DNA of 64,000 nucleotides from Spirochaetia bacterium (GCA_965140585.1 OZ223269.1:960001-1024000), one strand, 5' to 3'. Positions 1 through 25,335 are shown, counted from the first letter of the stretch. A program made the numbers and translations. The notes: generated by a model from the sequence alone, not told the origin.

Positions 1-76
1 CAATGGCCCTCACTCCAGAATCGCGCCAATTCGGCGAAGACGCCGAACAATTTTGCTACTCAAATCGTCGTTATAC
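1..76 (+). repeat. attC site 1 (3' half; cut by window edge)
   Basis: Ends ATTTTGCTACTCAAATCGTCGTTATAC, as in the copy at 1024-1161. Core GTTATAC at 70-76. Internal hairpin TTCGGCG-AAGA-CGCCGAA. Confidence 0.85.
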
Positions 77-171
77 AGATATGAAGTGTGGGTAAATATC
101 TTTGTATACAAAATATGAATTTTAGGTTTAAAATAGGATGAATTTATAGATTAACTAAAAAAAGAGATGAA

Positions 172-1029
172 ATGAGATTGTTAAAAAAATTACATAAAAG
201 AATATATGAGATCATTGAACCTGCAGATAAAGCTGACATTCAAAGCAAATGTTTCGATATTACAATAATAGTATTGATAATCGCCAATATCGTCTCAGTG
301 ATTTTAGAATCTTTTTCAAATTTACAAGTTACATATAGGATTTGGTTTGATGTATTTGAGATAATATCTGTAATTATTTTTACAGTAGAATATTTGCTTC
401 GATTGATAACAGCTGTGCATAAATATCCAGGAGAAAATGCATTTAGAGCTATTATAAAATATATTTTATCGCCAATGGCGATAATAGATTATTTTGCAAT
501 AATTCCGTTTTATATTCCTCTATTAATAAAGATAGATTTGAGATTTTTAAGAATATTAAGATTAACAAGACTTTTAAGAATATTAAAAGTAAATCGATAT
601 TCAAAATCATTACAATTATTAGGAAAAGTTTTAAAAAGGAAAAAAGAAGAATTAGTTGTAACCCTGTTTGTTACAATGATTTTGATGCTATTAGCTGCAT
701 CAATAATGTATCATGTTGAATCAGATGTTCAACCCGACGCATTTCCAAATATTATTGCTTCGTTTTGGTGGGCAATCGCAACGCTAACAACTGTAGGTTA
801 TGGTGATATTTATCCAGTTACAATATTAGGAAAAACATTAGCGGGTTTGATAGCTTTATTAGGTATTGGTTTGGTAGCGTTGCCAACTGGAATTATTAGT
901 TCAGGGTTCATGGAAGAATTTAATGAAGATAAATTAAGAAAGAAGAGAAGGACATCTAAGAATAGTATTTTGAATAAACGAAGATTATCAAGAATGGAAA
1001 GAAAAAGAATGAAGAAAAATACTGTATAA
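172..1029 (+). CDS. Voltage-gated potassium channel (6TM ion transporter), cassette gene
   Basis: TTVGYGD selectivity filter, FWWA pore helix, S4 segment RFLRILRLTRLLRILK. Confidence 0.92.
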   Translation: MRLLKKLHKRIYEIIEPADKADIQSKCFDITIIVLIIANIVSVILESFSNLQVTYRIWFDVFEIISVIIFTVEYLLRLITAVHKYPGENAFRAIIKYILSPMAIIDYFAIIPFYIPLLIKIDLRFLRILRLTRLLRILKVNRYSKSLQLLGKVLKRKKEELVVTLFVTMILMLLAASIMYHVESDVQPDAFPNIIASFWWAIATLTTVGYGDIYPVTILGKTLAGLIALLGIGLVALPTGIISSGFMEEFNEDKLRKKRRTSKNSILNKRRLSRMERKRMKKNTV

Positions 1030-1161
1030 CAAGAGAAATGCAGTAGTCAAAATCTTTGTCACAGTTCTGGCAGAGACACTTCGCGCTGATCGCGCTACGT
1101 TCCAGAACTGCGCCAAGCCCCGAAGACTCGGCCGATTTTGCTACTCAAATCGTCGTTATAC
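1024..1161 (+). repeat. attC site 2 (138 bp)
   Basis: Inverse core GTATAAC 1024-1030 and core GTTATAC 1155-1161. AGTAG(T)CAAAAT pairs with ATTTTGCTACT. Internal stem CAGTTCTGG/CCAGAACTG. Confidence 0.9.
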
Positions 1162-1201
1162 AGACGTCCGATATGGTGGAAAAATATCATGAAGGCATGA
1201 A

Positions 1202-1582
1202 ATGAAAAAAAGAAATAATATAGAAATAAAGGTTAAAATCAAATTACTGTATCATAATCTTAAAAAGGTTCTTTCGAATAATATTATAATTTCGGTAATC
1301 GCTTTATTGATCACACTCGGATTCACTAATCAGTTTCGAAAAACATCACATGAAGAAATTTACATGAATGCTTTAAGAATGTTGTTAATCTCAATGATTT
1401 CTTTTGGATTTGGAATTTCATTGATATTCAGTGAATGGATACGTCGTGATGAAAATCATTTATATTGTCTTTATGGAATAAATAGAATTAAGAGATATGG
1501 TATTTTATACTTTTTGAATTTTATAATTGTAATAGCTGTGTTCCTAATTGGCATTCAAATGAGAAAATTTATATATGGATGA
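1202..1582 (+). CDS. Small membrane protein (about 3 TM), cassette gene
   Basis: Hydrophobic segments; overlaps the downstream ATPase start. Confidence 0.7.
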   Translation: MKKRNNIEIKVKIKLLYHNLKKVLSNNIIISVIALLITLGFTNQFRKTSHEEIYMNALRMLLISMISFGFGISLIFSEWIRRDENHLYCLYGINRIKRYGILYFLNFIIVIAVFLIGIQMRKFIYG

Positions 1583-2216
1583 ATTAGTAATTGAAGGCAT
1601 AAACTATTCTTATAAGCATGATAAGCTCTTGGGCAATATTCATTTTAAAATGAAGAAAAAAGGAATATTTGGTCTTTTTGGATTGAATGGTGCCGGGAAA
1701 ACAACATTCTTTAACTATCTATCTGGAAAAAATAGTGGCGAAACTGGGTTATTAAAGATAAATGATAGACTAATAGAAAATAAAGAAAGATGGAAATATT
1801 TTAGTTATTTAAATCAGAGAAATTTTCTGCCTTTTGATATGAAAGTAAAAACCGCAATTAAAATATTATCCTCTTCAATAGATTTTGATGAAAGAATAGA
1901 TAAATTAAAAGAATTTAGAATAGGAAAATTATCAGGAGGGGAGAAACGGTATTTAGAAACTCTTATAATATTAGGATTGAATAGAAAATTTATATTATTG
2001 GATGAACCCTTTTCTGAAATTGAACCAATGTATATAGAAAAGTTAAGTAGAATGATTAATAAGAAGAGCCAGGAGAATGGTATAATTATAACAGATCATA
2101 ACCATCATGCTGTTCGTAAAATAAGTGATGAGATAGGAATTTTAAGAGATAGAAAAATTATTAAAATAAATAATACAGATGAAGAATTAAAAATGAAAGG
2201 ATATTATGTAAAATAG
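1575..2216 (+). CDS. ABC transporter ATP-binding protein, cassette gene
   Basis: Walker A GLNGAGKT, signature LSGGE, Walker B ILLDEPF, H-switch ITDH. Confidence 0.9.
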   Translation: MDELVIEGINYSYKHDKLLGNIHFKMKKKGIFGLFGLNGAGKTTFFNYLSGKNSGETGLLKINDRLIENKERWKYFSYLNQRNFLPFDMKVKTAIKILSSSIDFDERIDKLKEFRIGKLSGGEKRYLETLIILGLNRKFILLDEPFSEIEPMYIEKLSRMINKKSQENGIIITDHNHHAVRKISDEIGILRDRKIIKINNTDEELKMKGYYVK

Positions 2217-2224
2217 AAATAGCT

Positions 2225-2362
2225 GTATAACAAAAGATTTGGAGTAGTCAAAATCTTTGTCACAGTTCTGGCAGAGACACTCCGCGCTGATCGCGCTACG
2301 TTCCAGAACTGCGCCAAGCCTCGAAGACTAGGCCGATTTTGCTACTCAAATCGTCGTTATCA
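2225..2362 (+). repeat. attC site 3 (138 bp)
   Basis: GTATAAC 2225-2231 to GTTATCA 2356-2362. Near-identical to 1024-1161. ATTTG(G)AGTAG(T)CAAAAT pairs with ATTTTGCTACTCAAAT, leaving two extrahelical bases. Confidence 0.9.
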
Positions 2363-2427
2363 AGACGACTGCCCCACGATTAGTGGACACCTGCTATAGT
2401 TAGATTTAAACTAAATAGGGGTGAAAA

Positions 2428-2736
2428 ATGGGAAAGAGAAAAGTCCAAGCGTACACAGAAGAATTCAGAAAGGAGGCCGTAAGACGGTCTGAGAAAGAAG
2501 GGGTTACAGCAAAGCAGGTAGCCGAAGAATTAGGGATTACCGTACAGCAAATCTATAACTGGAAAAGACAATATAATAAATTAATCGGCCGGCAATTCAA
2601 GACCGTTGATGGTGTAGATTATTCAAAAATAGAAAGCGAAGAATTAAGAGCACTTAAAAGAGAGAACAAACGTCTAAAAGATGAGAATGCATTCTTAAAA
2701 AAAGCTGCTGCGTACTTTGCGAACGACCAGGAGTGA
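2428..2736 (+). CDS. IS3-family transposase OrfA
   Basis: YTEEFRKEAV...QVAEELGI...IYNWKRQY helix-turn-helix, coiled coil, LKKAAAYFA end. Confidence 0.92.
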   Translation: MGKRKVQAYTEEFRKEAVRRSEKEGVTAKQVAEELGITVQQIYNWKRQYNKLIGRQFKTVDGVDYSKIESEELRALKRENKRLKDENAFLKKAAAYFANDQE

Positions 2737-3599
2737 AGTACGCTGTGATATATCATTTTATAGGTCAGTATGCAATAACCCTGATGTGTCGTGTTCTTGA
2801 AGTATCTCGTTCAGGATTCTATAAATGGTTCAACTGTAAATCCTCAAAGCGAAAGGAACGAGAAGAGAAATATACAAAACTCGTTTTAGATACGTATAAA
2901 GATTTTCAGGCTATTTATGGAGCGAGACGAATTGCTGATGAGCTGAATGATTTAGGTTATGAGTGCAGTGAAAATTATATAGCTAAAATCATGAAGGATA
3001 ATGAAATAAAGGCATTAAATGGAAAAGGTTTCAAATATCCTAAGAAAAGTCTTGCAATGAATAATGTTTTTGAGAATATATTATTTCGTAATTTTACAGC
3101 ATCTAAACCTAATGAAAAGTGGACCTCAGATATCACGTATGTATGGGTGAAAGATAAATGGATGTACCTGGCTGTAGTAATGGATCTATATTCAAGAAAG
3201 ATAGTCGGCTGGGCTTTAAGAGATTATATGACAGAAGATTTAATAAAAGAAGCCTTTTCAGTAGCGATGGGACGAAGGAATTTTGATAGTGCTCCAATAG
3301 TTCATTCTGATAGAGGAGTGCAATACAGAGCCCAGGACTACATAGATTATGTAAGATCATTTGGCTGTGAGATAAGTATGAGCAGGAAGGGTAATTGTTG
3401 GGATAATGCACCGATAGAATCCTTCTTCAGCAGGTCGAAGGTTGAGATGATCTATCCCAATAATTATCAAACAGTAGAAGCATTAAAAGCTGGCGTGTTT
3501 GAATATATTGAGATATTCTATAACAGGAAGAGGAAGCATTCAGCATTAGGCTATGTGAGTCCAGCTGAATACGAAGAGCAAATGGAATTAGCTGCATAG
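2733..3599 (+). CDS. IS3-family transposase OrfB (DDE integrase core)
   Basis: YGARRI, WTSDITY, HSDRGVQY, GNCWDNAPIESFF, YNRKRKHSALGY motifs. Confidence 0.95.
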   Translation: MKYAVIYHFIGQYAITLMCRVLEVSRSGFYKWFNCKSSKRKEREEKYTKLVLDTYKDFQAIYGARRIADELNDLGYECSENYIAKIMKDNEIKALNGKGFKYPKKSLAMNNVFENILFRNFTASKPNEKWTSDITYVWVKDKWMYLAVVMDLYSRKIVGWALRDYMTEDLIKEAFSVAMGRRNFDSAPIVHSDRGVQYRAQDYIDYVRSFGCEISMSRKGNCWDNAPIESFFSRSKVEMIYPNNYQTVEALKAGVFEYIEIFYNRKRKHSALGYVSPAEYEEQMELAA

Positions 3600-3630
3600 T
3601 TAGGCTGTCCACTTTTTGTGGGGCACTCCA

Positions 3631-4467
3631 GGATCATGAGTACCATTTCAACTGATATTGTTAAATCCCGGATGGAGGCCCTTGGCCTTTCTTTTATGGC
3701 AGCCGGTTTTGACTCCTTCTTGAGTGACCAGTCCAGACGGGAGAATACTCTTTTAGAGGTTCTTTCCGACCTTGTTGATCTTGAATATCATCCGCGAAAA
3801 GAACGTATGGCAAGAACACGGTTGAAGGTATCAGGAATTCCTCAGCATAAGAATCTTGAAGACTTTGACTTAAGCTGGCTGAAAGGCGGTCTCACACAGA
3901 AAAAGTTTAATGAACTTTCCTCTTTGAGCTTCATTGAACGTAAAGAGAATATCATTCTGCTGGGACCAAGCGGGCTTGGCAAAACTCATCTGTTATTGGC
4001 TCTGGGGCATAAAGCCTGTATGAATGGATTTACCGCCTACTATATAACCTGTGTAGATTTACTTGAGCGACTTATGAAATCCAGAGAATAGGGAAAATTC
4101 AGTAGAAAGCTTCAATGGTTCTCAAAGCCGCATGTTCTATTGGTTGATGAAGTTGGCTATGAAAATCTTACTACGGAACAGGCTACTTTATTTTTTCAGC
4201 TTGTTAATACCCGATATGAAAATGGTTCGATTATCTTAACTTCAAATAAAAACTTCGGACATTGGGGAGAAATCATGAATGATGATGCAGTGGCTACCGC
4301 CACACTGGACAGGCTGCTCCATCATTCTCATGTTCTCAGTCTTGAAGGAGATTCATACCGGATGAAAGACAGGTTGAAAATAGGAGTCGTTGACTTCTAA
4401 TATATTTTTGCCGGAAAACTGAAGTTTAGCTCCGGTGAAAACCTGCAGTTTTAGAACGGTGTTGACA
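3631..4467 (+). mobile_element. IS21-family remnant (istB and right end; istA missing)
   Basis: istB followed by tandem sub-terminal repeats (CCGGAAAACTGAAGTTT / CCGGTGAAAACCTGCAGTTT) ending CGGTGTTGACA at 4467. Confidence 0.8.
3636..4400 (+). pseudogene. istB: IS21 helper ATPase IstB with in-frame nonsense codon
   Basis: GPSGLGKTHL, VDEVGY, ATLDRLLHH, GDSYR motifs. TAG at 4089-4091 splits ORFs 3618..4091 and 4140..4400, which are in the same frame. Confidence 0.9.
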
Positions 4468-5550
4468 AAGTTTGAGAAATTGGGAATGGAAGGATTGAAA
4501 ATTCAGCCGACAATTCCGCATCATGTACCGAATAAGACACCAAAAGCAATAGAAGTCGCAATCATAAAAATACGAACAACGAAAGAAACTAAAAACTGGG
4601 GTGCAAATAAGATACTGTGGAAATTAGAAAAAGAGGGAGTTTACGAAAAGCTTCCGGCTCGCTCAACAGTCAGTTTGATATTAAAGAGAAATGGATTAAT
4701 TCCTGAACGTAAAAAAAGAAAAAGGGTAGAATCAGAAAGGCCGATCATTGATCCTCAAGAATCGAATGAAGTATGGAGTGCTGATTTCAAAGGGCAATTC
4801 CGGATGGGGAATGGAAAATATTGTTATCCTCTAACAGTATGTGATAGTAAATCAAGATTGATAATTGAGATAAAAGGTTTACATAAAACAGATTACGAAA
4901 CTGTTAAGGCAATTTTTTAAAGGGATATTTCAAGTATATGGACTCCCTAAACAGTTACATACGGATAACGGAGTTTCTTTTGCAAATGTAAGGGCTTTAG
5001 GCCGCCTAACAGCGTTTGGTGTCTGGCTGATGGATTTGGGAGTGAAACCAGCCTATTCAGATCCAGGACACCCTTAACAGAATGGTCGATATGAAAGAAT
5101 GCATAGAGAATTGAAAGCTGCAACATGCCAAAGCCTCAGTAGGAACCTTCAAGCACAGCAGGTTAGATTCACAAGTTAAAGAAGTTTTATAATAACGAAA
5201 GGCCACATGAAGCTTTAGGTATGAAGACACCGAATAGTGTTCATGAGAAGTCTAAAAGAGTCTAAGAAGAAGAAATAAATAAATGTGAGTATCCAGTAGG
5301 ATACAAGATTAAGCATGTTTGTAATAACGGAATAATAAGAGTAGGTAGAACAGATCAGATATTTGTAACAACGGTTTTGAAGGGTAAAGAAGTAGGATTA
5401 GAGGAGATAGGAGAGGGTATTTACCGTCTGTATTATCGCAATTATTGGTTTGGATATTTGGAGGAACAGCACTTCAGGTGTATGATATTCAGGAGTACAG
5501 TTACGTACCGAGACTGTAGATCAATGTGTACACAAAGCTCGGTCTGAACA
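4468..5550 (+). pseudogene. IS481-family transposase remnant (5'-truncated, frameshifted, with stops)
   Basis: WGANKI, PARSTV, NEVWSADFKG, YPLTVCD. After a frameshift near 4915: YGLPKQLHTDNG, PGHP*QNGRYERMHR, YNNERPHEAL. Probable end ..GGTCTGAACA at 5550. Confidence 0.85.
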
Positions 5551-5687
5551 TACTTTGGGACGTTTTGAATAAAATTAGAGCATATACTTATAAATCGTTT
5601 ACAGGTAATAAAATATTCCATTTTTTTTGATTCCTTGCTCAAATTAATAAATCTTGAATTATATAAAATTGATTGAAACAATACGCA

Positions 5688-5723
5688 TTAATGTGTATAT
5701 TTGCATTATATAATACACATTAA
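5688..5723 (+). promoter_or_regulatory. Inverted-repeat operator/promoter of vapBC
   Basis: TTAATGTGTAT (5688-5698) and ATACACATTAA (5713-5723) flank/overlap a TATAAT, directly before the AAGGAG RBS. Confidence 0.65.
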
Positions 5724-5732
5724 GGAGTTTTT

Positions 5733-5927
5733 ATGAGAACAAATATAGTTATTGATGATAGTTTAATGAATCAAGCTATTGAATTATCCGGATATAATAC
5801 AAAGAAAGAAACTGTTGAAGAAGCGTTACGAATGTTAATAAAATTCAAGCAGCAGAATGCTATAAGATCATTAAGAGGGAAATTAAAATGGGAAGGGGAT
5901 CTTGATGCAATGAGAAGTGATAAATGA
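5733..5927 (+). CDS. vapB: Type II antitoxin VapB (DUF2191-like)
   Basis: MRTNIVIDDSLM..TKKETVEEALR..LRGKLKWEGDLDAMR is typical; ATGA overlap with vapC. Confidence 0.9.
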   Translation: MRTNIVIDDSLMNQAIELSGYNTKKETVEEALRMLIKFKQQNAIRSLRGKLKWEGDLDAMRSDK

Positions 5928-6316
5928 TTGTTGTAGATACCTCAGCTTAGATAGACTATTTCAATGGTAAAAAATCTCCTCAGACTGATAGACTGGATAA
6001 AGATTTAGGAACTGAAAGAGTAATTATAGGAGATCTAATAATTACAGAATTGCTGCAAGGATTTAAAAACGATAAAGACTATGAAATAGCCAAGAAATTA
6101 ATAGAAAGTCTGGAATTTAGAGACTTCGTTGGTAAAGAAATAGCAATCCAGGCCGCGGACAATTATAGATATTTAAGAAAAAAGGGAGTAACTGTTAGAA
6201 AAACAATAGATGTTTTGATAGCTACTTTTTGTATAGAAAATGAATACGAATTAATCCATAACGATAAAGATTTTGAACCTTTTGAAGAATATCTTGGCTT
6301 AAAAATTAGAATTTAA
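5924..6316 (+). pseudogene. vapC: PIN-domain toxin VapC inactivated by nonsense codon 9
   Basis: MIVVDTSA*IDYF: TAG at 5948-5950 where Trp is usual. Downstream in frame: ELLQG, RKTIDVLIA, HNDKDF. Confidence 0.88.
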
Positions 6317-6384
6317 AAATTGAATTTCCTACTCGTTTAATAAAGCAATAAAAATTATGTAATAATCAGTAAATCAAAGTATCC

Positions 6385-6438
6385 TTATAGCATGAGATTG
6401 GGAGTAGTCAAAACCTTTGTCACTGTTCTGGCGGAGAC
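6385..6438 (+). repeat. Truncated, degenerate attC site 4 (left arm only)
   Basis: TTATAGCATGAGATTGGGAGTAGTCAAAACCTTTGTCACTGTTCTGGCGGAGAC aligns with the first ~54 nt of attC 2 and 3, then similarity stops. Confidence 0.8.
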
Positions 6439-6532
6439 GAATCTTGTTGAACCGGCACATTTAAATACTTACGAAATTTGCAATCATCATTTTATACATA
6501 TAATTCATAGTACCTTTACTATGGAGATAAAA

Positions 6533-7091
6533 ATGAAACGAATCATAATTTTCCTATGTTTTATTACACTTTCTCTCCCTCTCTTTGCAGAAGGACCGGA
6601 ACCAATTGTAAGCGTAAATGATTAGGGTGTAGGAGTCATCTCCGGTATGGCAATGGGTGATTTAGCCCAGGTTGCAAACTTCGGTTTCGGAATTGAAACA
6701 AAACTGCCTATGGAATTTAATTCTTTGTCGAATCTATTGATAATTCCACGAGTCTCCGGGCTCTATTATCTCACACAGCTTAATACTATAACAGGTATTA
6801 AGCTGTGTAGGTATAGGTGCTGCTGTAGGTTACAAAATAAACCTTTCTGATAAAATATCGCTTACACCTTCTCTTGGCTGCAATTCTCTCATTCACATGG
6901 CTCTGGCAGATACACCATTGTTTTTCGTTGATACTGGTTTAACGGTCGGACTTGACTCAAGCTTTGTTTTATCTGAAGAGTTATCAATTTATTTGGAACC
7001 CACTTACATGTACTTTTTTGAGCAGGAAGTAATATCTCATCAGATATTATTAAGTACAGGTGTACACATTCGGTTAGGAGGTGATGAATAA
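6533..7091 (+). pseudogene. Exported beta-strand-rich (outer-membrane barrel-like) protein, disrupted
   Basis: Signal peptide MKRIIIFL..LFA, in-frame TAG at 6623, later frameshift(s), alternating beta pattern. Confidence 0.55.
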
Positions 7092-8097
7092 TGAAAAAGA
7101 AATTTACATTACCTGTAATGAGTATAATTTTGTTTGCTCTGTTTATAGGCTGCTTTGATATGATTTCAACGCTGACTGGAGGAGATTCAACCCCATTATC
7201 AAATAATCTGGCTGAGGACGCTAGCTTTGGAACTGCAGGCACAGTTAGCCTTACCGGAGATACTGCCAGAAGAGTAGCCGGAGACAGTGAAGTAATATTT
7301 ATACTTTAAGTTTAAGCTCAACAACATGAATCTACTATCTTCAAAAATTTGATGACAGTGGAACAGCTGTATCTGCCTTTGGTGATGCTGGGAAATTAGC
7401 AATTGACTTGAAAGATTATGATGCTGCAACGGTTCTAACGGATCCAGGGACTTGGATAGCAGCGATGGCTGTTCTAAACGATGGCTCTGTTTTAATAGCT
7501 GGAGCTATATCTACAACCGGGCAAGAAGGTTTTGTAGTAAAATATACATCGACAGGGGTATTGGATACCAATTTTTTCAATAATGGATATTTTGATCTTT
7601 CTGATACTGACGGTACAATACTAACCAGCGTGCTATTTCTTGGATTAACACTTGATGGTGTTGATTTATACATATGTGGGAATCGAACACTTTCCGCCGG
7701 AGGCACTATAGGATCTGTATGGAAAATTTCGTCAGCGGGTGTAGCCAATTCTGATTTTGGTGGAGAAGAAGGATTGGCCCCGGTTTCACTGCTTGATAAT
7801 AGTTCCAGCTTCAACAGCTCTATGATAAACAGTCTCTTTCTAAAATTCGACGGAAGCTTGATTATTTCCGGAAGTGGTATTGATACTTCAAACAATTATT
7901 ACCGAATTGTTAATCAGGCTGCATTCCGTCAAACTACTCATAGAGGTTCTTTTGATACAGCATTCAGTTTAAGTGGAATTTTTTACCCCTTAGGAGAAAC
8001 TACAACAGGCGCCATTAGCAACTTTGTTAAAGACGGGACACGACTCTTAGCAGCCGTTACTCTGACTTCTGAAACAGTAGTTGTTGCATACAAGTAG
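7091..8097 (+). pseudogene. Lipoprotein with delta-60-like beta-propeller repeats, disrupted
   Basis: Lipobox FIGC, stop at 7309, repeats VKYTSTGVLDTNF / KISSAGVANSDFG / GSFDTAFS in 7408..8097. Confidence 0.6.
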
Positions 8098-8198: not shown

Positions 8199-8603
8199 AT
8201 GAGAAAACTTATTAAATTGAATATAACATGGCAGGGTAAGAAATTGGATTATATAAAAGCAGCCAGTATTAAAGATTTTAAGAACAAAAGAATAAAAAGT
8301 ATCACAATATTGGGTAAAAAAGTCGGAATTATTAAAGGACCGGATTCTGAATTTTATGCAATTGAAGTCGGTTGTAAGCATCAGGGCGCAGATATAACAA
8401 AAGGCAATATATCTGGAGATATAGCAACCTGTCCTCGTCATGGATGGCAATTTAATCTTCTTACAGGAGAATGTCTTAATCATGATGCCTCAAAATTAAA
8501 AAAATATGGATTGAAAATAGAGGATGATGTTATTTTTATTACTTCTAAACCATTACCAGAGGATGTAGAAGATGATGATCCTCTTCTGCATTTTTTTGAT
8601 TGA
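8199..8603 (+). CDS. Rieske [2Fe-2S] ferredoxin
   Basis: CKHQG and CPRHGWQF ligand motifs. Confidence 0.9.
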   Translation: MRKLIKLNITWQGKKLDYIKAASIKDFKNKRIKSITILGKKVGIIKGPDSEFYAIEVGCKHQGADITKGNISGDIATCPRHGWQFNLLTGECLNHDASKLKKYGLKIEDDVIFITSKPLPEDVEDDDPLLHFFD

Positions 8604-8630
8604 GCAAATTATTGTGGAGAAAGTTTCAAC

Positions 8631-9092
8631 ATGAAAATTAAGAATATCGAATTGAATCATAAAGATTATGAAGATCAGAAAATACAGGTTCGTATAATAA
8701 GCCTGGTAAATTTATTTAATGAACTTAAAAACCGAAAAATACCTGCCGAAATTATTGAAACTTTTAATACTATGATAGATTCCATAAATACATTTGATGG
8801 TGAACCTAAAATGCTTCTAAAATTGCTGAACAGCATTCAGGAGAAAGTACTGAGCAGTCTTGAAAAAGAGTTAAAACTTGTTACTAAAAATCATTATCAA
8901 AATAAGTGGATGGCCATGGGGATGGCAGCCTTTGGTATACCAATTGGTGCAGCTCTCGGTTTAACATTGAATAATATGGCCTTTCTTGGTCTGGGCCTTC
9001 CAATTGGTTTGGCTATAGGCATAGCTATCGGTTCTAAAATGGATAAAGCTGCTAAAACACTTGGAAATCAGCTTAATCTTACCAGAGGATAG
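8631..9092 (+). CDS. Hypothetical membrane protein with C-terminal Gly-rich hairpin
   Basis: RBS GGAG; GIPIGAALG..GLGLPIGLAIGIAIG. Confidence 0.75.
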   Translation: MKIKNIELNHKDYEDQKIQVRIISLVNLFNELKNRKIPAEIIETFNTMIDSINTFDGEPKMLLKLLNSIQEKVLSSLEKELKLVTKNHYQNKWMAMGMAAFGIPIGAALGLTLNNMAFLGLGLPIGLAIGIAIGSKMDKAAKTLGNQLNLTRG

Positions 9093-9139
9093 AACTCTTT
9101 AAAACTGAATTTTTTTATTATTTGTGAGTTAAAAAAAGT

Positions 9140-9966
9140 ATGGAAAATAACTATTTTGGTTTAAAGAAAGCTATTATAATTTTAATTGTTCTTGCCGTTC
9201 TACAATTTGCAGGCGGACTGTTCATTACTGCAATAGCTATGCTGATAAACAAGAATCTGAATATCGCCTTAATTGCAGGTTTTGTAAATATCATAGTGTT
9301 CGGCATCTATTTATATTATCTTGCAAGCAGAGATAAAGCCGATATTTTCAAATTTTACTCAGTTAAACAATTCGAGATAAAATATCTTTTTCCAGGGTTA
9401 CTTTTAATTCTTGGAATCTCCATTTTAGCGTCCGAATTTGATAATATTTTAAGAGCTGTTCTTCCACTTCACGAATTATTTTTACTTGAAGACTTAATAA
9501 GTACCGATGGCAGGTTTTTCAATATCCTGGTTGAAATACTAACCTTATGTATTGTAGCACCCCTTACTGAAGAACTAATTTTTCGCAGGCATATACTTAA
9601 AAAATGAATAGAACTATGTCTTCAAACAAAGCTATATTCTGGTCGGCACTGCTTTTCGGCATTTTTCATCTCAATCCATTGCAGTTTCCGGGTGCTTTTA
9701 TCTACGGCTGTATTTTCGGTTATCTGTTTATACTTACCGGTTCTGTGCTGCCAGGTATCATTCTTCATTCTGCCGTAAATTTTTTACCGGTGCTGCTTAT
9801 TGATATCCTTGGAATCGTAATAGATGGTTATATTCCATCTCCTGAGAAAACACATCAGCCTGTGTGGTTTAACTTACTTGGTCTTATTCTCACATTTACC
9901 AGTATTTTGATCTTTTACATTATAAATAAGAATACTGCTCATAAAGGTGAATTAAAAGATCTTTAA
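9140..9966 (+). pseudogene. CPBP (CAAX/Abi) intramembrane protease split by frameshift
   Basis: APLTEELIFR in 9140..9607; SALLFGIFH and ILHSAVN in 9604..9966. Break at an A-run near 9600. Confidence 0.8.
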
Positions 9967-10600
9967 ACCGGTTGAAGCTAACTTTGCTTTTCAATAGATA
10001 TCATATATCTGAGTATAATTACAGATGCCGCGTAAAGGCTTGACCATAAAATATAACCATAATCAGAATTTATTTCTGATTATCTATTCCCTATCGATGA
10101 GAAAATAAATACTCCAAGATTTCCAAAAGTAAAAACCAGACCGATAGCGGTGCCAGCGTATCGACCTCCAATACATTCAGTTTCAATAACTATTTTTGTT
10201 AAAATAGCAACATATCCATCTATTATTAAACCGAATAATGCGCACAATAACCAGAGGGTCAATCTTTATGATAGAGGAAGTAGTGAAGTACTGATAAAAT
10301 TTAACAGAATCATTAAAGAAAGCATTCTCTTTTTTGATTTGCCCCTCCCTTACATTAGAGTAAAAGGCATTGCAGCTATCACACTGGCTCCATAGATTAA
10401 TGATAACGAACTATCCGCTTGAACTGCTTTCAATCCGTCGGCTCTTAAATACATTGGAATGAATATTGTCCATAATACAGAATTCACAATATAAACAGCT
10501 CCATAAAGTATAATCTCATTCTTCCAGCTGCCGACTATTGGCGATACAAAAGTCATTAAGGCAAGTAATAAAAAATTAGGAGTAAATGCTCTGAAAAGAT
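9963..10600 (-). pseudogene. Degraded MFS transporter
   Basis: Hydrophobic fragments (10350..10556, 10080..10262) with GGRYAGTAIGLVFTFGNLG, interrupted by stops. Confidence 0.6.
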
Positions 10601-10744
10601 CAAAGCCGTCTACTTCATGAAGGCTGCAAAGGAGACAATATCCCAGTCGTAATTATTAGTATGTTTTCTATACATTAGATGCAATGTTAATTTGAGTAAT
10701 GAAATATATCAAATACAAATACTTATTTCATTATTTGAAATTAG

Positions 10745-11580
10745 GTAGTCTTTATTTAAAAGCTGCTCCTTTTCCAGGGGTACTTCCTATAATTATATTT
10801 CCTCCAAGCAGTTTTTAAAATGATTTGGCAATTGCAAGGCCAGGCCTGTTTCCTCTGTAGCTTCTTTCATAACCACTGTCCACCTGAAAGATGGGCTCCA
10901 AAATTTTATCAAAATATTGCTGTTCAATCCTGATTCCGGTATCTGAAACACTAATTATGTACTCTGAATTATCAAAATCAATTTGTAATGTAACCGAACC
11001 TTTTTCCGTAAATTTAACAGCATTTTCTATTAGAGCAAAAATATAATCTTTAATCGCTGTACATCCGTATTTATAATTTGTTTATCTGAATTTAGATTTA
11101 TATCAATATTAAACAATAGCGATTTCTGCTCTGTTGGAAACTAGAAATGATTCTTTAGCTCATCTGACAGACTTATAAGCGACACTATCTCTAAATTTAG
11201 CTCTGATTTTCCCGTTTTAATTTCAGACATATATATTATACTGTCAACAATATCAATCAATTGAGAACTCCTATATTTTACAATATTTCTGAAAATTATT
11301 ATTTTCAGCCTCCGTGGTATCTGTGATAAGCCTTGAATATCCTATTATTCCGTTTAAAGGGTTGCGAATTTCATGACTTATATAAAGCAACAAAAATATA
11401 TGCCAGTTCTGAAAAAAGAAAATACAGCAATGTTGTCAGGATTTTTAGTCTTAAGATGAATTCGCAAGATAGGCATAAGCATATAATCAATGAATCCGAA
11501 TGCTCCATAAAAGATTTAGGGTAATCTGATCCCTGTTCTGAATGTATTGATGTCAACTTTTTCTTTTAAGCATACGGCTC
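10745..11580 (-). pseudogene. Degraded sensor histidine kinase
   Basis: Minus-strand fragments ENAVKFTEKGSVTL (N box), SDTGIRI (G1), GLGLAIAK (G2), GGKIIIGSTPGKGAAF. Many stops and frameshifts. Confidence 0.75.
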
Positions 11581-11712
11581 CAGTAAATACAGCTGAAATA
11601 TTGAATTATTAATTATATGAAATGAAAACTTAAAATGCTATGTAATCGAATACATACCTTTTTGCTTTTCCGCATTTTTTTATTAAGTTTATATAAGTTT
11701 GAGGAGTTTAAT

Positions 11713-12792
11713 ATGACTGATAAAGATAAAATAATTAAAGACAGAGCTGCTGGAGCTGTTTTAGGAGCGTTAATCGGCGATGCTCTTGCACTCGGTCCAC
11801 ACTGGTATTACAATCCTAAAAAGCAAAGAAATGATTACGGTGATTGGATTTCGTATTACACGGATCCCATGCCCGGCCGCTATCATGACGGATTAAAAGC
11901 TGGCGCATTATCACAGGCAGGTTATCTGCTTAATTTAACTCTTAATTCTTTATTAGAAAAAGGAGAGTACAGCCAGGATGATTTCTGCAATAGGATGGAT
12001 AATTATTTCTTTCCGCTAATAGACGGGACTCCTATCAGCGGTCCGGGTAATTATACAAGCCAGTCCATACGTGAAGCCTGGAAAAAAAGAACTTTAAAAA
12101 AATTACCATGGGGAAAAACAGGAGGAAACGCTGATACTACTGAAGCTATAGAAAGAATTATACCTATTGCAGTAAGATATGCACTTGAACCATCAAAAAT
12201 GACCGAGTTTGTATCTGGGAATACTTTGCTGACTCAGACTGATGACATTATAGTTTCAATAACTGTCGCATATGCAGCTATTCTCGGACAGCTTGTTCAG
12301 GGACATCCCCTGGATAGGCATATTTCGGAAAAACTAATGAAACTCGTGCACACTGGTGAGCTTCCTTTTCATTCTGTAACAAATGAAGATCTCGAACCAC
12401 CAAAGGCTGGTGATACTGAAATGCCGAGAGCAGGCAGGTTTGCATCACCTGATGCACTTCTGACACCATCATATATGGCTGAGGCGGCGGTTGATCCTGA
12501 TATTAAGATCGAACCGGCATGGAAAGTGTCGATAGTATATGGAATGCCCTGTGCAATTTATCATCAAATTCCTGCGGTTTATTATCTTTCGGCACGTTTT
12601 CATAATGATTTTGAAGCGGCAGTTTTAAATGCAGTCAACGGAGGAGGTCAGAACCAGGCACGTGCTATACTAACCGGTGCACTTACAGGAGCACAGGTGG
12701 GATTAAGCGGTATTCCACAGAAATTTATAAGCGGACTCGAGAAAGGAGAGGAACTTAAGAAAGCTGCTGAACAGCTTGCAGATGACTTGTAA
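11713..12792 (+). CDS. ADP-ribosylglycohydrolase / crystallin J1 family protein
   Basis: GAVLGALIGDALALGPHWYY and AVNGGGQNQARAILTGALTGA..G..GIP. Start chosen at GAGGAG RBS. Confidence 0.85.
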   Translation: MTDKDKIIKDRAAGAVLGALIGDALALGPHWYYNPKKQRNDYGDWISYYTDPMPGRYHDGLKAGALSQAGYLLNLTLNSLLEKGEYSQDDFCNRMDNYFFPLIDGTPISGPGNYTSQSIREAWKKRTLKKLPWGKTGGNADTTEAIERIIPIAVRYALEPSKMTEFVSGNTLLTQTDDIIVSITVAYAAILGQLVQGHPLDRHISEKLMKLVHTGELPFHSVTNEDLEPPKAGDTEMPRAGRFASPDALLTPSYMAEAAVDPDIKIEPAWKVSIVYGMPCAIYHQIPAVYYLSARFHNDFEAAVLNAVNGGGQNQARAILTGALTGAQVGLSGIPQKFISGLEKGEELKKAAEQLADDL

Positions 12793-12805
12793 CATGATAC
12801 CCGGA

Positions 12806-14050
12806 CTAATCAGTATCTGCATGCGAAATGGAGATACTGAAAATCTGTTCAGATACATTCAAAAAACTATCGACTATATCCGGATCAAACTGCCTGCCAC
12901 GCTGCTCACTTATTAGTTGTACTGCATCTTCATGTTTGAAGGCTTTTTTATAAGGACGTTGAGACACAAGAGCATCATAAACATCAACCAGTGCTGTGAG
13001 TCGTGCTGATAACGGTATTTTTTCACCCTTCAAACCTTCAGGATACCCCAATCCATCCCATCTTTCATGATGATACAAGGCTATCTCTTTACCTAAACTA
13101 TATAAGGATTGCCCTGAGATGTTCTTCTCTATTGCTGAGATAACTGATCCGCCGATCTTAGGATGACTTTTAATAATTTCGTATTCTTCGTTATCAAGTT
13201 TACCTGGTTTCAGTAATATTGAATCCTGAATTCCTACTTTTCCGATATCATGAAGAATAATTGAATTTTTTAAATCCCTTATATACTCCCTTGTTATATA
13301 TCCGTAATATTTACCAGATATTCTGAGATCTTCTGTCAGTAGTTCAATATAATTCTGTAAACGTATAAGATGCTGTCCCGTGTCATTATCTCTGTATTCT
13401 GCGAGTTTTGCGAGTCCGATCATACTTGCGTTTCTTGTTTGAACAATTCTTTTAATTAAATTTTGAAAACCTTTCAAAAATAATGCATTCGAAACAACAA
13501 TACTCATATTCAATAAGATATAATTCAGGCTTTTTACAAGCCAGGCATCAGGCAGTATATTAAATTTAATTTCCCAGTCAAGGTTTCCAGTGACCAGAAG
13601 CAGCCAGACTATAATATTTGTAAAAGTGTATATTGAAAATGAGACTATAGCACCCTTATTACCCAAAAGAAAAGCCGCTAATATAGTTGTTGAAAACATC
13701 CATATTTCACCGGCACCAAGAGGCCCCAGGATCAGGAGAACCACCAATCCCAGAAAATAAAAAATGGCCAGTCCAATTGAGTTTTTGATTTTGTAATTCA
13801 GATTCTTTATTCTTGCAAGTATTAAAAATGAAAGATAAAACAGAGTATCTGCAAAAGCAATTAGATAATAATGTTCCTTTAATGAAAGATATACACTGGG
13901 AATATATGTAAAAAATGCCAGAATTGCAAAAAATTTGAATACAGTATCACAAACTTCCTGACGCCATTCTTTTATTTCACGCCCCATCAGCAGATCATCT
14001 TCTGAGACAAATAATCCAAAAATTCGTCTAATAAAAGTGTTAAAATTCAT
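12806..14050 (-). CDS. Membrane-bound HD-GYP c-di-GMP phosphodiesterase
   Basis: About 6 TM N-terminus; EYRDNDTGQH, HDIGK, HHERWDGLGYP, DVYDAL..RPYK. Confidence 0.92.
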   Translation of the reverse strand: MNFNTFIRRIFGLFVSEDDLLMGREIKEWRQEVCDTVFKFFAILAFFTYIPSVYLSLKEHYYLIAFADTLFYLSFLILARIKNLNYKIKNSIGLAIFYFLGLVVLLILGPLGAGEIWMFSTTILAAFLLGNKGAIVSFSIYTFTNIIVWLLLVTGNLDWEIKFNILPDAWLVKSLNYILLNMSIVVSNALFLKGFQNLIKRIVQTRNASMIGLAKLAEYRDNDTGQHLIRLQNYIELLTEDLRISGKYYGYITREYIRDLKNSIILHDIGKVGIQDSILLKPGKLDNEEYEIIKSHPKIGGSVISAIEKNISGQSLYSLGKEIALYHHERWDGLGYPEGLKGEKIPLSARLTALVDVYDALVSQRPYKKAFKHEDAVQLISEQRGRQFDPDIVDSFLNVSEQIFSISISHADTD

Positions 14051-14145
14051 ATAAATCCTGCATCCATATTAACTTTATGAAAAATTGCCGGTCAATTCAA
14101 ATCTATATACAAATATTAAAAATATTTAATATAATGGAGTCTGTA

Positions 14146-15216
14146 ATGGATATAAAAATCAAAGCTCTTATTATATTTCTAATCGTTCTTACATCCTGTC
14201 ACACGGTTTCAAGACCGCAGACTCCTGAACCGCCTTTCAACTATGAAAATCAATTAGTTTCTGTATATAACGAAGATGATGATATAAATTTAGACGGTAT
14301 TTTGAGCATACCAAATAACAGGAAATCATTTCCTGTAGTAATTTTAGTAAGCGGCTCAGGTCCGCATAACTACGATGCAGAATGGAACTATCACAAACCA
14401 TTTGCGGTCATAGCAGATTTTCTTGCTGAGAACGGGACAGCAGTTCTCAGGCTTAATGATCGGGAATATAATTCAAATCCGGAGTTATTTTACCAGAACA
14501 CAACTGCTGATTTTGCCCGGGATCTCAGCTGTGCAGTAAGATTTTTAAGAAGTTATAAAGAAACCCGCAATTGTGATATCGGATTTTTAGGGCATAGTGA
14601 GGGTGGAATAGTAAGCGCAATGACCGCAGCTGAAGACCCGGATATTTCATTTGTAATCCTGCTTGGAACTCCCGCACTGCCGTTAAAAGATGTGAACCTG
14701 ACTGCTGCCGCTTTATCCTATGAACTTTCAGCTACACCCAATGAGGAGAAAGAGAAGCTTATGAGTTTTCACAGGGCATTTAATGAACTGGTTGAAAATT
14801 ATACCAGCCGGAATGAGTCCAGACTTGAGGTTGAGAAATTATTTGATTCATATTTTAAAGACACTGAACTTTATGACTTAAACACCCGGTATAATCTTTC
14901 CACAAAAATTACTTTACCCTGGTACAGATATATATTTTTAAACAATCCTTCTGATTATCTTGAAAAACTTAAAATTCCCGTACTAGCCATTATTGGACAG
15001 TATGATACTCAGGTTCCACCGGAAGAAAATCTTAAATACACGAAATTGGCCTTAAGCAGGCACTGGAATGATAAAAATTCGATATTAGAGTTTCCTGATT
15101 TAAACCATATGCTTCAGCCAACAAAAGGATATCAGGATTATTCAGGAATTGATAATACAGTTTCAGTAGAGCTTCTTCATGAAATTAACAGATGGATTAG
15201 TTATTTAGATTTATGA
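14146..15216 (+). CDS. Alpha/beta-hydrolase lipoprotein
   Basis: Lipobox LTSC, SGSGP, nucleophile GHSEGG, D-x-Q-V, LNH. Confidence 0.88.
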   Translation: MDIKIKALIIFLIVLTSCHTVSRPQTPEPPFNYENQLVSVYNEDDDINLDGILSIPNNRKSFPVVILVSGSGPHNYDAEWNYHKPFAVIADFLAENGTAVLRLNDREYNSNPELFYQNTTADFARDLSCAVRFLRSYKETRNCDIGFLGHSEGGIVSAMTAAEDPDISFVILLGTPALPLKDVNLTAAALSYELSATPNEEKEKLMSFHRAFNELVENYTSRNESRLEVEKLFDSYFKDTELYDLNTRYNLSTKITLPWYRYIFLNNPSDYLEKLKIPVLAIIGQYDTQVPPEENLKYTKLALSRHWNDKNSILEFPDLNHMLQPTKGYQDYSGIDNTVSVELLHEINRWISYLDL

Positions 15217-15232
15217 AAGAATAATTTATGCG

Positions 15233-15261
15233 TTGACACTATTTTGATTCATCATTAACAT
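15233..15261 (+). promoter_or_regulatory. Sigma70-type promoter of the ABC-F gene
   Basis: TTGACA-17 bp-TAACAT. Confidence 0.65.
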
Positions 15262-15267
15262 TACATT

Positions 15268-15441
15268 ACTTATTTTACAGGAGTACAAAGGGAACATGAG
15301 GCTGTAAGGCAGAAAATCACAAAATACTATCTTAGAACTCTTCTGGTTCATTATTGTGGTTATCTGCGTTGCTTTCCCCGGGCTCTCTGTTTTAACATTT
15401 TTTGTTATAAGATAAGCCCGGTTACACTTCAGGAGGAAGCT
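15268..15441 (+). promoter_or_regulatory. Structured 5' leader with 3-codon uORF (MRL*, 15296-15307); putative ribosome-dependent attenuator
   Basis: Stems 15275-15280/15302-15307, 15309-15322/15354-15367, 15378-15384/15415-15421. GCTTTC at 15371-15376 pairs with GGAAGC overlapping the SD. Confidence 0.55.
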
Positions 15442-16926
15442 GTGACCGGTATAATTATAAATAAACTTACATTCGGATATTCCACTCAACTTTTTAATAA
15501 TCTAAATATTCAGTTTTCAGAAGGATGGACCGCAATAGTCGGCAATAACGGCTGCGGTAAAACAACACTATTGCGTCTTATCAAAGGGGTGCTGACACCA
15601 TGGAGTGGAGATATTTCAACACATGGTTTGGTTTCATACTGTTCACAGAATTCGGAATTTCCACCTGAAAATGCAGAAGATTTTCTATATGCCTATACCG
15701 GTGTTTCAATGCGTCTTAAAGGTATTCTTAATATAGAAGATGACTGGCTGGACAGATGGAACACGCTGAGTTACGGGGAAAGAATGAGATTTCAAATTGC
15801 CAGCGCTTTATTCCAGGAACCGGATATACTTCTTGCTGATGAGCCTACTAATCACCTAGATGAAAATAGTAGAGCTATGATTTTAAATTCTTTAAAGCTT
15901 TTTAAGGGTACCGGGTTATTAGTCAGTCATGACAGGATTCTTTTGGAGCAGCTACCTTTTCAGTGTCTATTCCTTACTCCTTCATCTATTACGATGCGAA
16001 AAGGGAATTATTCTGCAGGGAAAATTGAAGAAGAAAGAGAGTATAAAGAAGCAGTTCGCCTGAAAAATAACCTTGGGAATACTATAAAAAGACTTGAAAG
16101 TGCTGCAGCTAATAAAAAGAGACTGGCAGCAAAAGCTGACTCAGAAAGTTCAAAAAGAAAACTTGATAACAAAGATCACGATGGAAAAGCTAAAATAGAT
16201 CTGGGCCGTCTTACCGGAAAGGACGCGGTGCAGGGAAAGATGTATTCTATTATGCAGACCAGGCTTGAGAATGAAAAGAAAAAGTTCTTTGAGGCTGATG
16301 TAAAAATAAAGAGAGAGTTAAAACTATATAATACATCAGAAGAAGTAAGATCTGATTATATCATCAGGCTTGATCCCGGAATGCTGAATATTGGAAACAG
16401 AAAACTTATACTTCCGGAAATTGAAATATCACCTGGAACTAATATTGGAATTAGAGGTGATAATGGAACCGGGAAATCTAGTTTAATTAAACATCTGAAT
16501 AAAATTAATAAAAATTCCCGGACTTTATATATCCCCCAGGAAATATCGATGGACGAAGCTAATATAATTTCTGAAAGAATAAATAATCTGAACAGAAATG
16601 AAAAAGGAAAAGTTTTTGCGTCACTTGATAGACTGGGCTCAGATCCTCACAGGATTTTAAATACTAATAGACCAAGTCCGGGAGAATTGCGTAAACTATT
16701 GTTGTCAGAAGGATTTCTTTATGCACCATCATTACTGATAATGGATGAGCCTACAAACCATATGGATCTTGATAGTATTGAAAAGATTGAAAGCACTCTC
16801 AGGGAAACAGACTGCGCCATTATACTTGTAAGTCATGATTCTACATTTTTAAATAATGTATCAAATGAGATATGGGAAATTAAATATACAGAGGACAAAA
16901 ATATTTTAGTGCTAATAAAACCCTGA
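15442..16926 (+). CDS. ABC-F family ATPase (two NBDs, no TM)
   Basis: GNNGCGKT/LADEPTNHLD and GDNGTGKS/IMDEPTNHMD with a charged helical linker. AGGAGG RBS, GTG start. Confidence 0.9.
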   Translation: MTGIIINKLTFGYSTQLFNNLNIQFSEGWTAIVGNNGCGKTTLLRLIKGVLTPWSGDISTHGLVSYCSQNSEFPPENAEDFLYAYTGVSMRLKGILNIEDDWLDRWNTLSYGERMRFQIASALFQEPDILLADEPTNHLDENSRAMILNSLKLFKGTGLLVSHDRILLEQLPFQCLFLTPSSITMRKGNYSAGKIEEEREYKEAVRLKNNLGNTIKRLESAAANKKRLAAKADSESSKRKLDNKDHDGKAKIDLGRLTGKDAVQGKMYSIMQTRLENEKKKFFEADVKIKRELKLYNTSEEVRSDYIIRLDPGMLNIGNRKLILPEIEISPGTNIGIRGDNGTGKSSLIKHLNKINKNSRTLYIPQEISMDEANIISERINNLNRNEKGKVFASLDRLGSDPHRILNTNRPSPGELRKLLLSEGFLYAPSLLIMDEPTNHMDLDSIEKIESTLRETDCAIILVSHDSTFLNNVSNEIWEIKYTEDKNILVLIKP

Positions 16927-20249: not shown

Positions 20250-21780
20250 TTATCTTTTAAGTTCACCTACAACTTTTACCCTGAAGCGTACCGCGTTGGA
20301 AGGGAGGTAGGCGAGCGGTATCTCTTCAAGCTCTACAATTTCAAGAGTTGTTTCATCAGCACCTGCTTTTACTGCTTCAGCCATTGCAGCGGTTTTTACT
20401 TCCTCAATAACCTGCTCACGCCCCTTACTTACGACATCAAATACACCATCGATACTGCCTGACACCTGGGAGATTGCTGCACCTATCGCATTAGCCACTT
20501 CAAAGTGATCAGGTTTGATAACCTCGCTTGCACCCTTAAGCTTAGAAGCAATTAGTATTGAACCGCCGCCAACCACTATAACCGGAATATCCGCAGCCAT
20601 TGTTTTCATCTTGTCAATGACTTCATTTCGTTTATTCCGCTTTCTATAAGTTTTTTATCAAGATCATCAACCTTAGATTTATCACCAAGTTCATACATAC
20701 CGTCCGCAACAGCAATATCAGTGGCAGTTAAAGTCTCTCCGCCGAATATTTTTGCTTCGGTATGTATTCTGTATCCTACCGACTGGGGGCCAACTGTTAC
20801 TCTGCCGTCCAGCTGTTTTACTTCTGAACCTCCGCCGAGACCCAGTGTTATCAGGTCTGGCATTCTGAAATTTGTTCTGACTCCGCCTATTTCTGCAGCG
20901 GATGACGACTCCCTTGGTCAATACACCTACATCAGTTGTTGTTCCTCCGACATCTGCATCAATAGCTTCCTTCATTCCGGTTAAAATCGCCGCACCCCTT
21001 AAGGTGTTTGTCGGTCCTGATGCGATAGTCAGAACCGGGTATTTTTTAGCGTATTCAATTGAAATCAGAGTACCGTCATTCTGAGTAATGAAAAGATCGG
21101 CTTTAATATTATGTTCAAGAAGGACGTTCTGAAATGAACTGTAGGCATTTTCTGTGAGTTTTCTGATATCGGAGTTGAGTATTGCAGCATTCTCTCTCTC
21201 TATGATACCAATCGAACCAATTTCACTTGATTTTGTAACAGGAAAATCAGCTCCGAATACTTCCGCAGCTAACTCCGCCACAAGACTTTCCTGCTCATCA
21301 TTTACAAGTGAGAATCCCCCCGGAGACAGCAAGAGCCTCTGCACCATGTGCTTTTATATCATTTAAGGCTTTTAAAATTTCATCTTTATCTGTGTTTGAT
21401 ATAAGAGCGCCGTGGTATTCATAGCCTCCCTTTACGATAACGTAAAAATGGTCAACTGCTTTTAAAATATCATCCGGCCATTCGATAAATGAAGGAATTG
21501 CAAAACCTGACGGCGCTGCAAGCCTTATTACTCCGACTTTAGAAAGACTTTTTCTTTCAACAATGGCATTGGTACCGTGAGTTGTTCCAAGCATGGCATC
21601 AGCTATATCCGCCGGGTTAATTGCGGAATCATTAAGGACTTGTTCAACAGCATTTTTAATTCCCGTTGAAATATCGGCTGAAGTTGCCTTTTTACATTTT
21701 GCAATTACCTTGTTCTTATCATCAAGAATGACTGCGTCTGTGTTGGTTCCGCCGACATCTATTCCAAGTCTGTATTTCAT
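20250..21780 (-). pseudogene. Hydantoinase/oxoprolinase family protein, in four frameshifted pieces
   Basis: GIDVGGTNTDAV, ERENAAILN, SGPTN..DVGGTTTDVG, TNFRMPD..GLGGGS, VANAIGAA spread over 21298..21780, 20718..21347, 20606..20863, 20250..20609. Confidence 0.9.
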
Positions 21781-25313: not shown

Positions 25314-25335
25314 ATAGAAGCAGAGCAATAACTTA

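Follow-up and report, generated by a model that had tools for sequence, protein, structure and literature searches.

What kind of element produces a run of unrelated, co-oriented genes separated from one another by imperfect palindromes of about 138 nt? Such a run opens the 64-kb stretch of Spirochaetia bacterium DNA analyzed here (GCA_965140585.1 OZ223269.1:960001-1024000, hereafter the window). A sequence-only reading had proposed a sedentary chromosomal integron with the repeats as its attC sites. The results below indicate that window 1-6453 (the array tail) is very probably the part of the cassette array farthest from the integrase (its distal end) in such an integron, carried by an uncultured member of the Spirochaetia, and that the ~138-nt repeats are attC. 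The array tail has been invaded by three insertion sequence (IS) elements or fragments.

Four copies of the repeat, all on the + strand, were identified in the window by reading of the sequence and with a repeat finder: one cut by the window edge (copy 0), two complete (copies 1 and 2, or attC 1 and attC 2) and one left-half remnant. Two 20-mers taken from the repeat each matched the window three times, as compared to 0.00 matches expected from 100 shuffles. When the window was searched by nhmmer with a hidden Markov model (HMM) of the family, all four matches fell in 1-6453 and none in 6454-64000 on either strand. The proposal of a near-identical attC family is borne out by the two complete copies (94% identity across 145 nt). 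It does not extend to copy 0, which is clearly more divergent, or to related genomes, where several stem subtypes occur and the mean pairwise body identity of 69-71% amounts to moderate homogeneity.

Other features that had been read from the sequence were recovered with slightly refined coordinates. The genes between the repeats are unrelated to one another, encoding an Ion_trans channel, a membrane protein with an ABC ATPase, and VapB/VapC, and they are AT-rich, with a GC content of 34.0% in 1-6438 vs 38.7% in the rest of the window. The stop codon of the K+ channel-like open reading frame (ORF), TAA at 1027-1029, falls within the inverse core GTATAAC. The start of each cassette is complementary to its own end, GTTATACAG pairing with CTGTATAAC both in cassette 1 (70-78 and 1022-1030) and in cassette 2 (1155-1163 and 2223-2231). 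Folded as DNA, attC 1 reached -32.8 kcal/mol on the - strand (z -6.0) and -26.5 on the + strand (z -3.8), and attC 2 reached -34.7 and -27.4 kcal/mol, respectively; 0 of 200 shuffles folded equally well for either copy.

A 20-mer of the repeat's R' arm was used to scan species-representative genomes and returned 34 loci (numbered with L below), none of which shows the cassette spacing of the window (1085 and 1201). These loci were searched by nhmmer, first with a profile of the window copies and then with a profile of 105 full-length sites, so that the HMM search in relatives covers the fetched loci rather than whole genomes. Two segments, CAXXYH 70,397-77,358 and OY776510 4,456,723-4,475,433, were left out, and the site counts are therefore lower bounds. 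The site alignment (A2) holds the 105 full-length sites; 8 of the 113 first-profile matches did not span the whole site and were omitted.

Two relatives carry large arrays. On the 2.2-Mb contig CAXXYH010000003.1, at least 37 matches (window-copy profile) or at least 40 (105-site profile) lie between 51.6 and 126.8 kb, and on the 5.15-Mb chromosome OY776510.1 the same two profiles gave at least 47 or at least 49 matches between 4.425 and 4.524 Mb, all on the - strand in both cases. The CAXXYH array spans about 76 kb; that of OY776510.1 spans at least 100 kb, some 2% of its 5.15-Mb chromosome. The sequence-only reading had named copies scattered in both orientations as the pattern that would speak against an integron; in the relatives, the copies occupy instead a single locus on a single strand (40/40 and 49/49). 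The attC and the longest ORF point the same way in 81 of 94 cassettes, and the median cassette measures 1418 bp. Seven short contigs, three from a Spirochaetaceae metagenome-assembled genome (MAG) and four from Bacteroidales or Mycoplasmatota bins, hold 2-5 copies each, always on a single strand, the three JAQQAK contigs included.

The Bacteroidales and Mycoplasmatota bins merit a separate remark. Loci L003, L012 and L013 (JAEINU010000047/50/19) and L034 (JAEIOE010000098) measure 2.4-8.2 kb and hold 2-5 co-oriented sites each. The bins are Bacteroidales MAG12 and Mycoplasmatota MAG22, and one cassette is 100% identical between two contigs. Either these are spirochaete integron contigs that were mis-binned, or the sites have spread past the class. 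Three other loci, L001 (Prevotella MAG, 322-348), L008 (437-467) and L029 (3867-3897; both Acidocella), were set aside as chance or partial matches; their similarity is confined to 27-31 nt of the R' arm and is not part of a full site. Among species-representative genomes, no contig labelled Treponema was returned by the 20-mer scan, and attC 1 had no match by blastn among 72,556 plasmids (PLSDB).

The 105 sites share a hairpin. In the hand-refined structure, 92.8% of 3725 cells were paired, as compared to 78.6% in shuffles (0 of 500 reached the observed value), and pairing dropped to 31-42% when partners were slid by 1-3 columns. Compensatory (double) changes were present in 26 of the 36 pairs of this structure and in 20 of 27 pairs according to RNAalifold, with a hairpin covariation score of 0.401 vs 0.153. 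With DNA parameters, the strand opposite the genes (bottom strand) was the more stable one in 104 of 105 sites (mean -33.2 vs -27.5 kcal/mol). The AAC and GTT triplets are near-invariant, each being found in 104 of 105 sites and in both complete window copies, and the R boxes form extended 9-nt palindromes. Two unpaired columns on the AAC-bearing 5' arm (alignment columns 19 and 26) are also near-invariant, with G and T, respectively, on the gene strand in 104 of 105 sites each, and exactly six covarying pairs lie between them (columns 20-25 with 154-149). This geometry agrees with that of published attC sites, whose extrahelical bases are described as sitting on the arm that holds AAC in the top strand, a 6-bp stem separating the first of them from the last (Nivina et al. 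2016, PMC5027507). Site length in the family has a median of 139 and ranges from 117 to 158 (138 in the window), some members being longer than the 57-141 bp given for attC sites in the same source (PMC5027507).

An integron integrase gene heads the array in both relatives. The suggested check for a tyrosine recombinase was run there, and the two genes found (L020:13914-15173 and L024:17293-18312) scored 382.5 and 392.5 bits against TIGR02249, well beyond its cutoff of 265, over model positions 5-315 and 4-315 of 315. In both, the Pfam Phage_integrase match covers about 200 residues vs 168 profile positions (about 30 longer). The best PDB match of the L024 integrase is VchIntIA (2A3V, E 4.6e-74), colinear over chain residues 16-318, and the alignment runs through a ...YPNA...W..FPS... 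segment, which we take to be specific to IntI and to distinguish it from Xer recombinases. The motifs that hold the presumed catalytic positions (R, K, H-x-x-R, H and Y) align with VchIntIA. In both relatives intI lies on the + strand at the high-coordinate end of a - strand array and is thus divergent from the cassettes. The 9-mer that the cassette-end rule (see below) predicts for the start of the first cassette occurs once between intI and the first attC (CAXXYH 127975; OY776510 4524824). In both relatives this junction is preceded by TAATATG, with a common CTGAGTTATATAGAA further upstream, and TAATATG/TT may therefore be considered a candidate attI. The two relatives contain complete integrons, with intI, the candidate attI junction and 40-49 detected attC sites, built on the 138-nt attC family.

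A cassette that has been a circle leaves a trace in its ends. With recombination at G/TT, the bases that follow GTT would be part of the next cassette and would be expected to pair with the inverse core of that cassette, not with that of their own site. The 6 nt following GTT were compared with the 6 nt ahead of the next site's AAC in 88 pairs of neighboring sites with less than 4 kb between them; they were exact reverse complements in 75 pairs, with a mean of 5.70 of 6. Comparison within sites gave a mean of 3.24 (8 of 105 perfect), and random pairing gave a mean of 3.18, with a maximum of 3.61 in 1000 draws. Only circular intermediates that recombined at G/TT explain this complementarity, which marks the cassettes as former circles. 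The two cassettes of the window conform to the rule, but with identical ends they cannot inform on it.

Cassette mobility is also visible in the distribution of individual cassettes. Window cassette 2 recurs in the OY776510.1 array (4510484-4511829, L023) with 95.4% identity across 1264 nt and 98.6% in its interior, and is flanked there by unrelated cassettes on both sides. Among recent duplicates within a MAG, the downstream attC sites are 98-100% identical and the upstream ones 52-66% (five clear pairs), as the canonical model requires.

The position of the array is conserved as well. Beyond the array tail, window 8226-15501 is colinear with the DNA just past the distal end of the CAXXYH010000003.1 array. 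This synteny implies that the locus is chromosomal and inherited, and that the array ends at the same chromosomal place in two species. Together with the cassette-end rule and the integrases at the array heads of the relatives, it upholds the original proposal of a sedentary chromosomal integron.

By this account, the - (bottom) strand of the window, complementary to the genes, would fold into an imperfect hairpin, and an IntI tyrosine recombinase would cut that hairpin at the AAC/GTT triplet of the R' box. The unit TT...ORF...attC...G would then leave as a circle and could re-enter at attI. The bottom strand is accordingly the presumed recombination substrate.

Several observations weigh against this account. 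Neither intI nor attI was seen for the window genome, whose array has its head outside the window; by homology with the relatives, both would lie further to the left, at a distance of tens of kb. The cassette-end rule is broken at 13 of 88 junctions, and in 13 of 94 cassettes the longest ORF is antisense, several of these being IS insertions. The locus on OY759746.1 is sparse for the 138-nt family, with six + and one - match in 60 kb. A search of window 1-8000 against Rfam (E up to 1) returned no matching family, only a chance snoRNA match (E 0.11). Of the two 7-nt consensus sequences, RYYYAAC fits the inverse core of 29 of 105 sites and GTTRRRY the core of 31 of 105, and the window's GTATAAC and GTTATAC are each one position off. 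This consensus is a weak criterion, because the conservation of attC sites is described as confined to the AAC and GTT triplets (Wu et al. 2013, PMC3607928). The extrahelical bases of the bottom strand are C and A here, the complement of those usually found, which are given as G plus a conserved T (PMC5027507); since the wording there is 'usually', we treat this as a deviation and not as an exclusion.

The remaining difficulties concern the link between an ORF and its attC. In 6 of 20 homologous cassette pairs, the body of the downstream attC is less alike than that of the upstream one, and older or between-genome pairs often share neither attC. In the case of cassette 2, both attC bodies (window 1024-2362 vs OY776510) are only 65-67% identical despite the 98.6% identity of the interior, and their differences consist of whole compensated stems on a common backbone. 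The simple picture of an ORF that travels with its downstream attC leaves this mismatch unexplained. Local homogenization of neighboring attC sites was considered as the cause of the body swap; adjacent sites are not significantly more alike than in shuffled orders (202 and 180 of 2000 shuffles reached the observed mean), and simple local conversion is therefore not the answer. The complementary extrahelical bases, the 9-nt R-box palindromes and the presence of nearly identical ORF segments on different attC bodies, or of a vapBC homologue on a different attC family, would all suit a family with relaxed or altered strand and site logic, in which IntI resolves at either R box and on either strand. 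We think this improbable. If it were true, the exchanged unit would be the GTT...AAC segment with the ORF and not the ORF plus attC. An alternative to resolution at either R box would be wholesale replacement of attC bodies through some form of conversion that integrons are not yet known to undergo.

Two other explanations of the window itself differ from an integron tail in whether a recombinase is involved and whether it is still attached. Repetitive extragenic palindromes (REP), miniature inverted-repeat transposable elements (MITE) or terminator-like hairpins would place palindromes between genes with no recombinase at all. The repeats here are indeed intergenic, palindromic, GC-richer than their surroundings and situated directly after stop codons, and the sparse OY759746.1 copies, one of them inverted, would fit such a dispersed element. 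However, this explanation leaves the complementary cassette ends (75/88) unaccounted for, and it sits badly with strict co-orientation at one locus adjoining intI, with the lack of any copy in the other 57.5 kb of the window and with the absence of a T-run after the hairpin. We find it scarcely credible.

The tail might instead be a CALIN (cluster of attC sites lacking an integron integrase), in which the attC sites of the window genome stand without an integrase or have been separated from it, e.g. by IS-mediated rearrangement; its cassettes would then be static unless IntI acted in trans. The window holds two attC sites or more and no intI, as in the CALINs described by Cury et al. (2016, PMC4889954). 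No tyrosine recombinase was found among the 70 window ORFs scanned, none of which matched Phage_integrase under the thresholds applied. The array stops with a truncated attC, and the tail contains three IS elements or fragments, IS having been linked to integron break-up (Cury et al. 2016, PMC4889954). Unlike in a CALIN, though, the array runs off the left window edge, the side on which intI is expected and on which the relatives have it; both relatives that were followed to the head of the array have an intact intI, and the chromosomal position at which the window array ends is shared with CAXXYH. A CALIN therefore seems unlikely, and the distal end of a sedentary integron remains the preferred reading.

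Features of the array tail and its flank (window coordinates)
Feature	Position	Strand	Evidence and remarks
attC copy 0, 3' part, cut at window start	1-78	+	nhmmer 4-79, HMM positions 70-145, E 8e-17
R' box of copy 0, GTTATACAG	70-78	+	cassette 1 starts at TT (71)
Cassette 1, 1085 bp	71-1155	+	G/TT to G/TT
Voltage-gated-type K+ channel-like ORF, 285 aa	172-1029	+	Pfam Ion_trans 2.3e-39, Ion_trans_2 3.6e-15
attC 1, 138 nt	1024-1161	+	GTATAAC 1024-1030 to GTTATAC 1155-1161
Cassette 2, 1201 bp	1156-2356	+	two overlapping ORFs
Membrane protein, 126 aa (cassette 2)	1202-1582	+	no family match
ABC-type ATPase, 213 aa (cassette 2)	1575-2216	+	Pfam ABC_tran 3.7e-16
attC 2, 138 nt	2225-2362	+	GTATAAC 2225-2231 to GTTATCA 2356-2362
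IS3-family insertion sequence	2370-3625	+	orfA 2428-2736, orfB 2733-3599; NCBIfam transpos_IS3 6.2e-92
IS21-type fragment, istB helper ATPase with in-frame TAG	3626-4400	+	ORFs 3618-4091, 4140-4400
IS481-like transposase pseudogene, several stops and frame breaks	4435-5550	+	NCBIfam transpos_IS481 6.9e-21, first 161 aa
vapB antitoxin	5733-5927	+	Pfam VapB_antitoxin 2.6e-16
vapC toxin, in-frame TAG at codon 9 (5948-5950)	5924-6316	+	NCBIfam TA_toxin_VapC 2.7e-31
attC left-half remnant, degenerate inverse core CCTTATAGC; array end	6383-6438 (nhmmer end 6453)	+	81% identical to copy 2 across 68 nt; nhmmer 6385-6453, HMM positions 3-71, E 1.7e-11
Chromosomal flank, outside array	8226-15501	+	blastn 77-85% to CAXXYH 49465-42348, four colinear blocks

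Beyond attC 2, the next cassette is reduced to a 13-nt stub (2357-2369), at which the IS3-family element begins. This element has 23-nt terminal inverted repeats (83% complementary), and its insertion point lies 11 nt past the attC 2 GTT. A related IS3-family element (84% identical) was observed at L006 ~715-735 (OY776510.1 ~4425006), 10 nt past an attC GTT. The offsets of 11 nt (window 2356-2370) and 10 nt (OY776510.1) are thus measured from the GTT of different attC sites, and the two insertions are independent, since their target sites have different stem subtypes and a different sequence following GTT. These positions, the only two left ends in the DNA examined, hint at a target preference of this IS for attC ends.

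The two halves of istB match NCBIfam IS21_help_AAA at 1.6e-33 and 9.9e-32, and istA is absent from the IS21-type fragment (window 3626-4400). The IS481-like element is 86.8% identical by blastn, across 1097 nt, to a copy within the OY776510.1 array. The IS load within these arrays is high: a gene for a 385-aa DDE transposase (DUF4372 + DDE_Tnp_1), for instance, lies antisense in five OY776510.1 cassettes, e.g. at L021 7740-8897.

The vapBC pair of the window has a counterpart on OY759746.1 (74% identical), a bona fide cassette whose attC belongs to a different and longer family and whose ends follow the cassette-end rule (GTTATACGA / TCGTATAAC). The VapC encoded there has W at the position of the window vapC stop. 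This second, longer repeat family, with the vapBC pair as one of its cassettes, forms an array at OY759746.1 2088859-2108878 (L014 1-20020), its repeats being bounded by GTATAAC ... GACGTTATA.

In-frame TAG codons recur: istB and vapC are interrupted in this way, as is a lipoprotein-like ORF that starts at 6534 (TAG 6621-6623). More broken ORFs follow up to 8097, and the array tail and its immediate flank look pseudogenized. A non-standard code and G-to-A hypermutation were both rejected as the cause of the TAG codons in vapC, in istB and at 6621-6623, because substitution spectra against homologues are unskewed (e.g. A/G 18 vs G/A 23 in the IS481-like element) and the flanking genes are intact under translation table 11. 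Given the three IS elements or fragments, the vapC nonsense codon and the truncated last attC, the tail is probably poorly expressed and decaying.

Outside the array, other split or truncated genes were noted: a CAAX-protease-like gene (window 9140-9966), a hydantoinase in two ORFs (20718-21780) and an asparaginase of which only the N-terminal part is present (50164-50673). These could reflect real decay or assembly errors. Window 23475-30973 contains small co-oriented detoxification-type genes (GNAT acetyltransferases, a flavodoxin-like protein, a metallo-beta-lactamase fold, two glyoxalase-family proteins and Ada); they resemble cassettes in content but not in structure, and the family HMM found no attC match in this interval. 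An N6/N4 DNA methylase (53388-54434) and a TPR protein whose C-terminal domain is an Mrr-type restriction endonuclease (60574-61932) are unrelated to the integron.

These results point to large, apparently active sedentary integrons in uncultured Spirochaetia MAGs that are labelled neither as Treponema nor by genus. Spirochaetes are listed among the phyla with integrons (Cury et al. 2016, PMC4889954), and in 2013 Treponema was given as the only spirochaete clade then known to have them (Wu et al., PMC3607928). In the literature searched, no description was found of a 139-nt attC family or of non-Treponema Spirochaetia integrons, the genomes behind the covariance model of 2021 (see below) not having been checked. 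The 105 aligned sites, with clean covariation and the cassette-end signature, should be useful for extending attC models. Points of specialist interest are that the conserved extrahelical bases are non-standard, that ORFs can be uncoupled from their attC bodies and that two independent IS3 insertions share a GTT offset. Apart from these, the locus is an ordinary integron tail and belongs to a known kind of gene-capture system.

The Treponema integrons are among the closest known systems. The intI gene of T. denticola points in the same direction as its cassettes, whereas that of the relatives examined here is divergent. The integrons of T. denticola, T. vincentii and T. succinifaciens share with the present ones the class-level host group, a conserved chromosomal position and long arrays (PMC3607928). 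The attC sites of T. succinifaciens, given as up to 132 bp, are close in length to the 138-nt family, whereas those of T. denticola and T. vincentii, at 63-68 bp, are shorter (Wu et al. 2013, PMC3607928). Spirochaete chromosomal attC sites have already been recognized as a structurally coherent group, represented by a covariance model of 52 sites (Ghaly et al. 2021, PMC8352920); compared by length alone, its consensus of 98 differs from the median of 139 (117-158) found here.

Another of these systems is the superintegron of Vibrio cholerae, likewise a sedentary array on the chromosome, on the order of 100 kb in size, with toxin-antitoxin cassettes and an intI divergent from the cassettes. No solved structure matches the relatives' IntI better than its integrase, VchIntIA. 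Its attC sites, the V. cholerae repeats (VCRs), are similarly long (VCR2 133 bp according to PMC5027507, vs 138 nt here) and there too the extra bases lie on the arm with AAC in the top strand, separated by a 6-bp stem. For the attC sequences themselves, the comparison extends to the plasmid search. The two systems differ in host phylum and in the extra bases, of which VCR2 has three and the present family two, these being C and A on the presumed substrate strand and not G and T. They differ finally in the repeat itself, which is one near-uniform sequence in V. cholerae and occurs as several stem subtypes in these spirochaetes.

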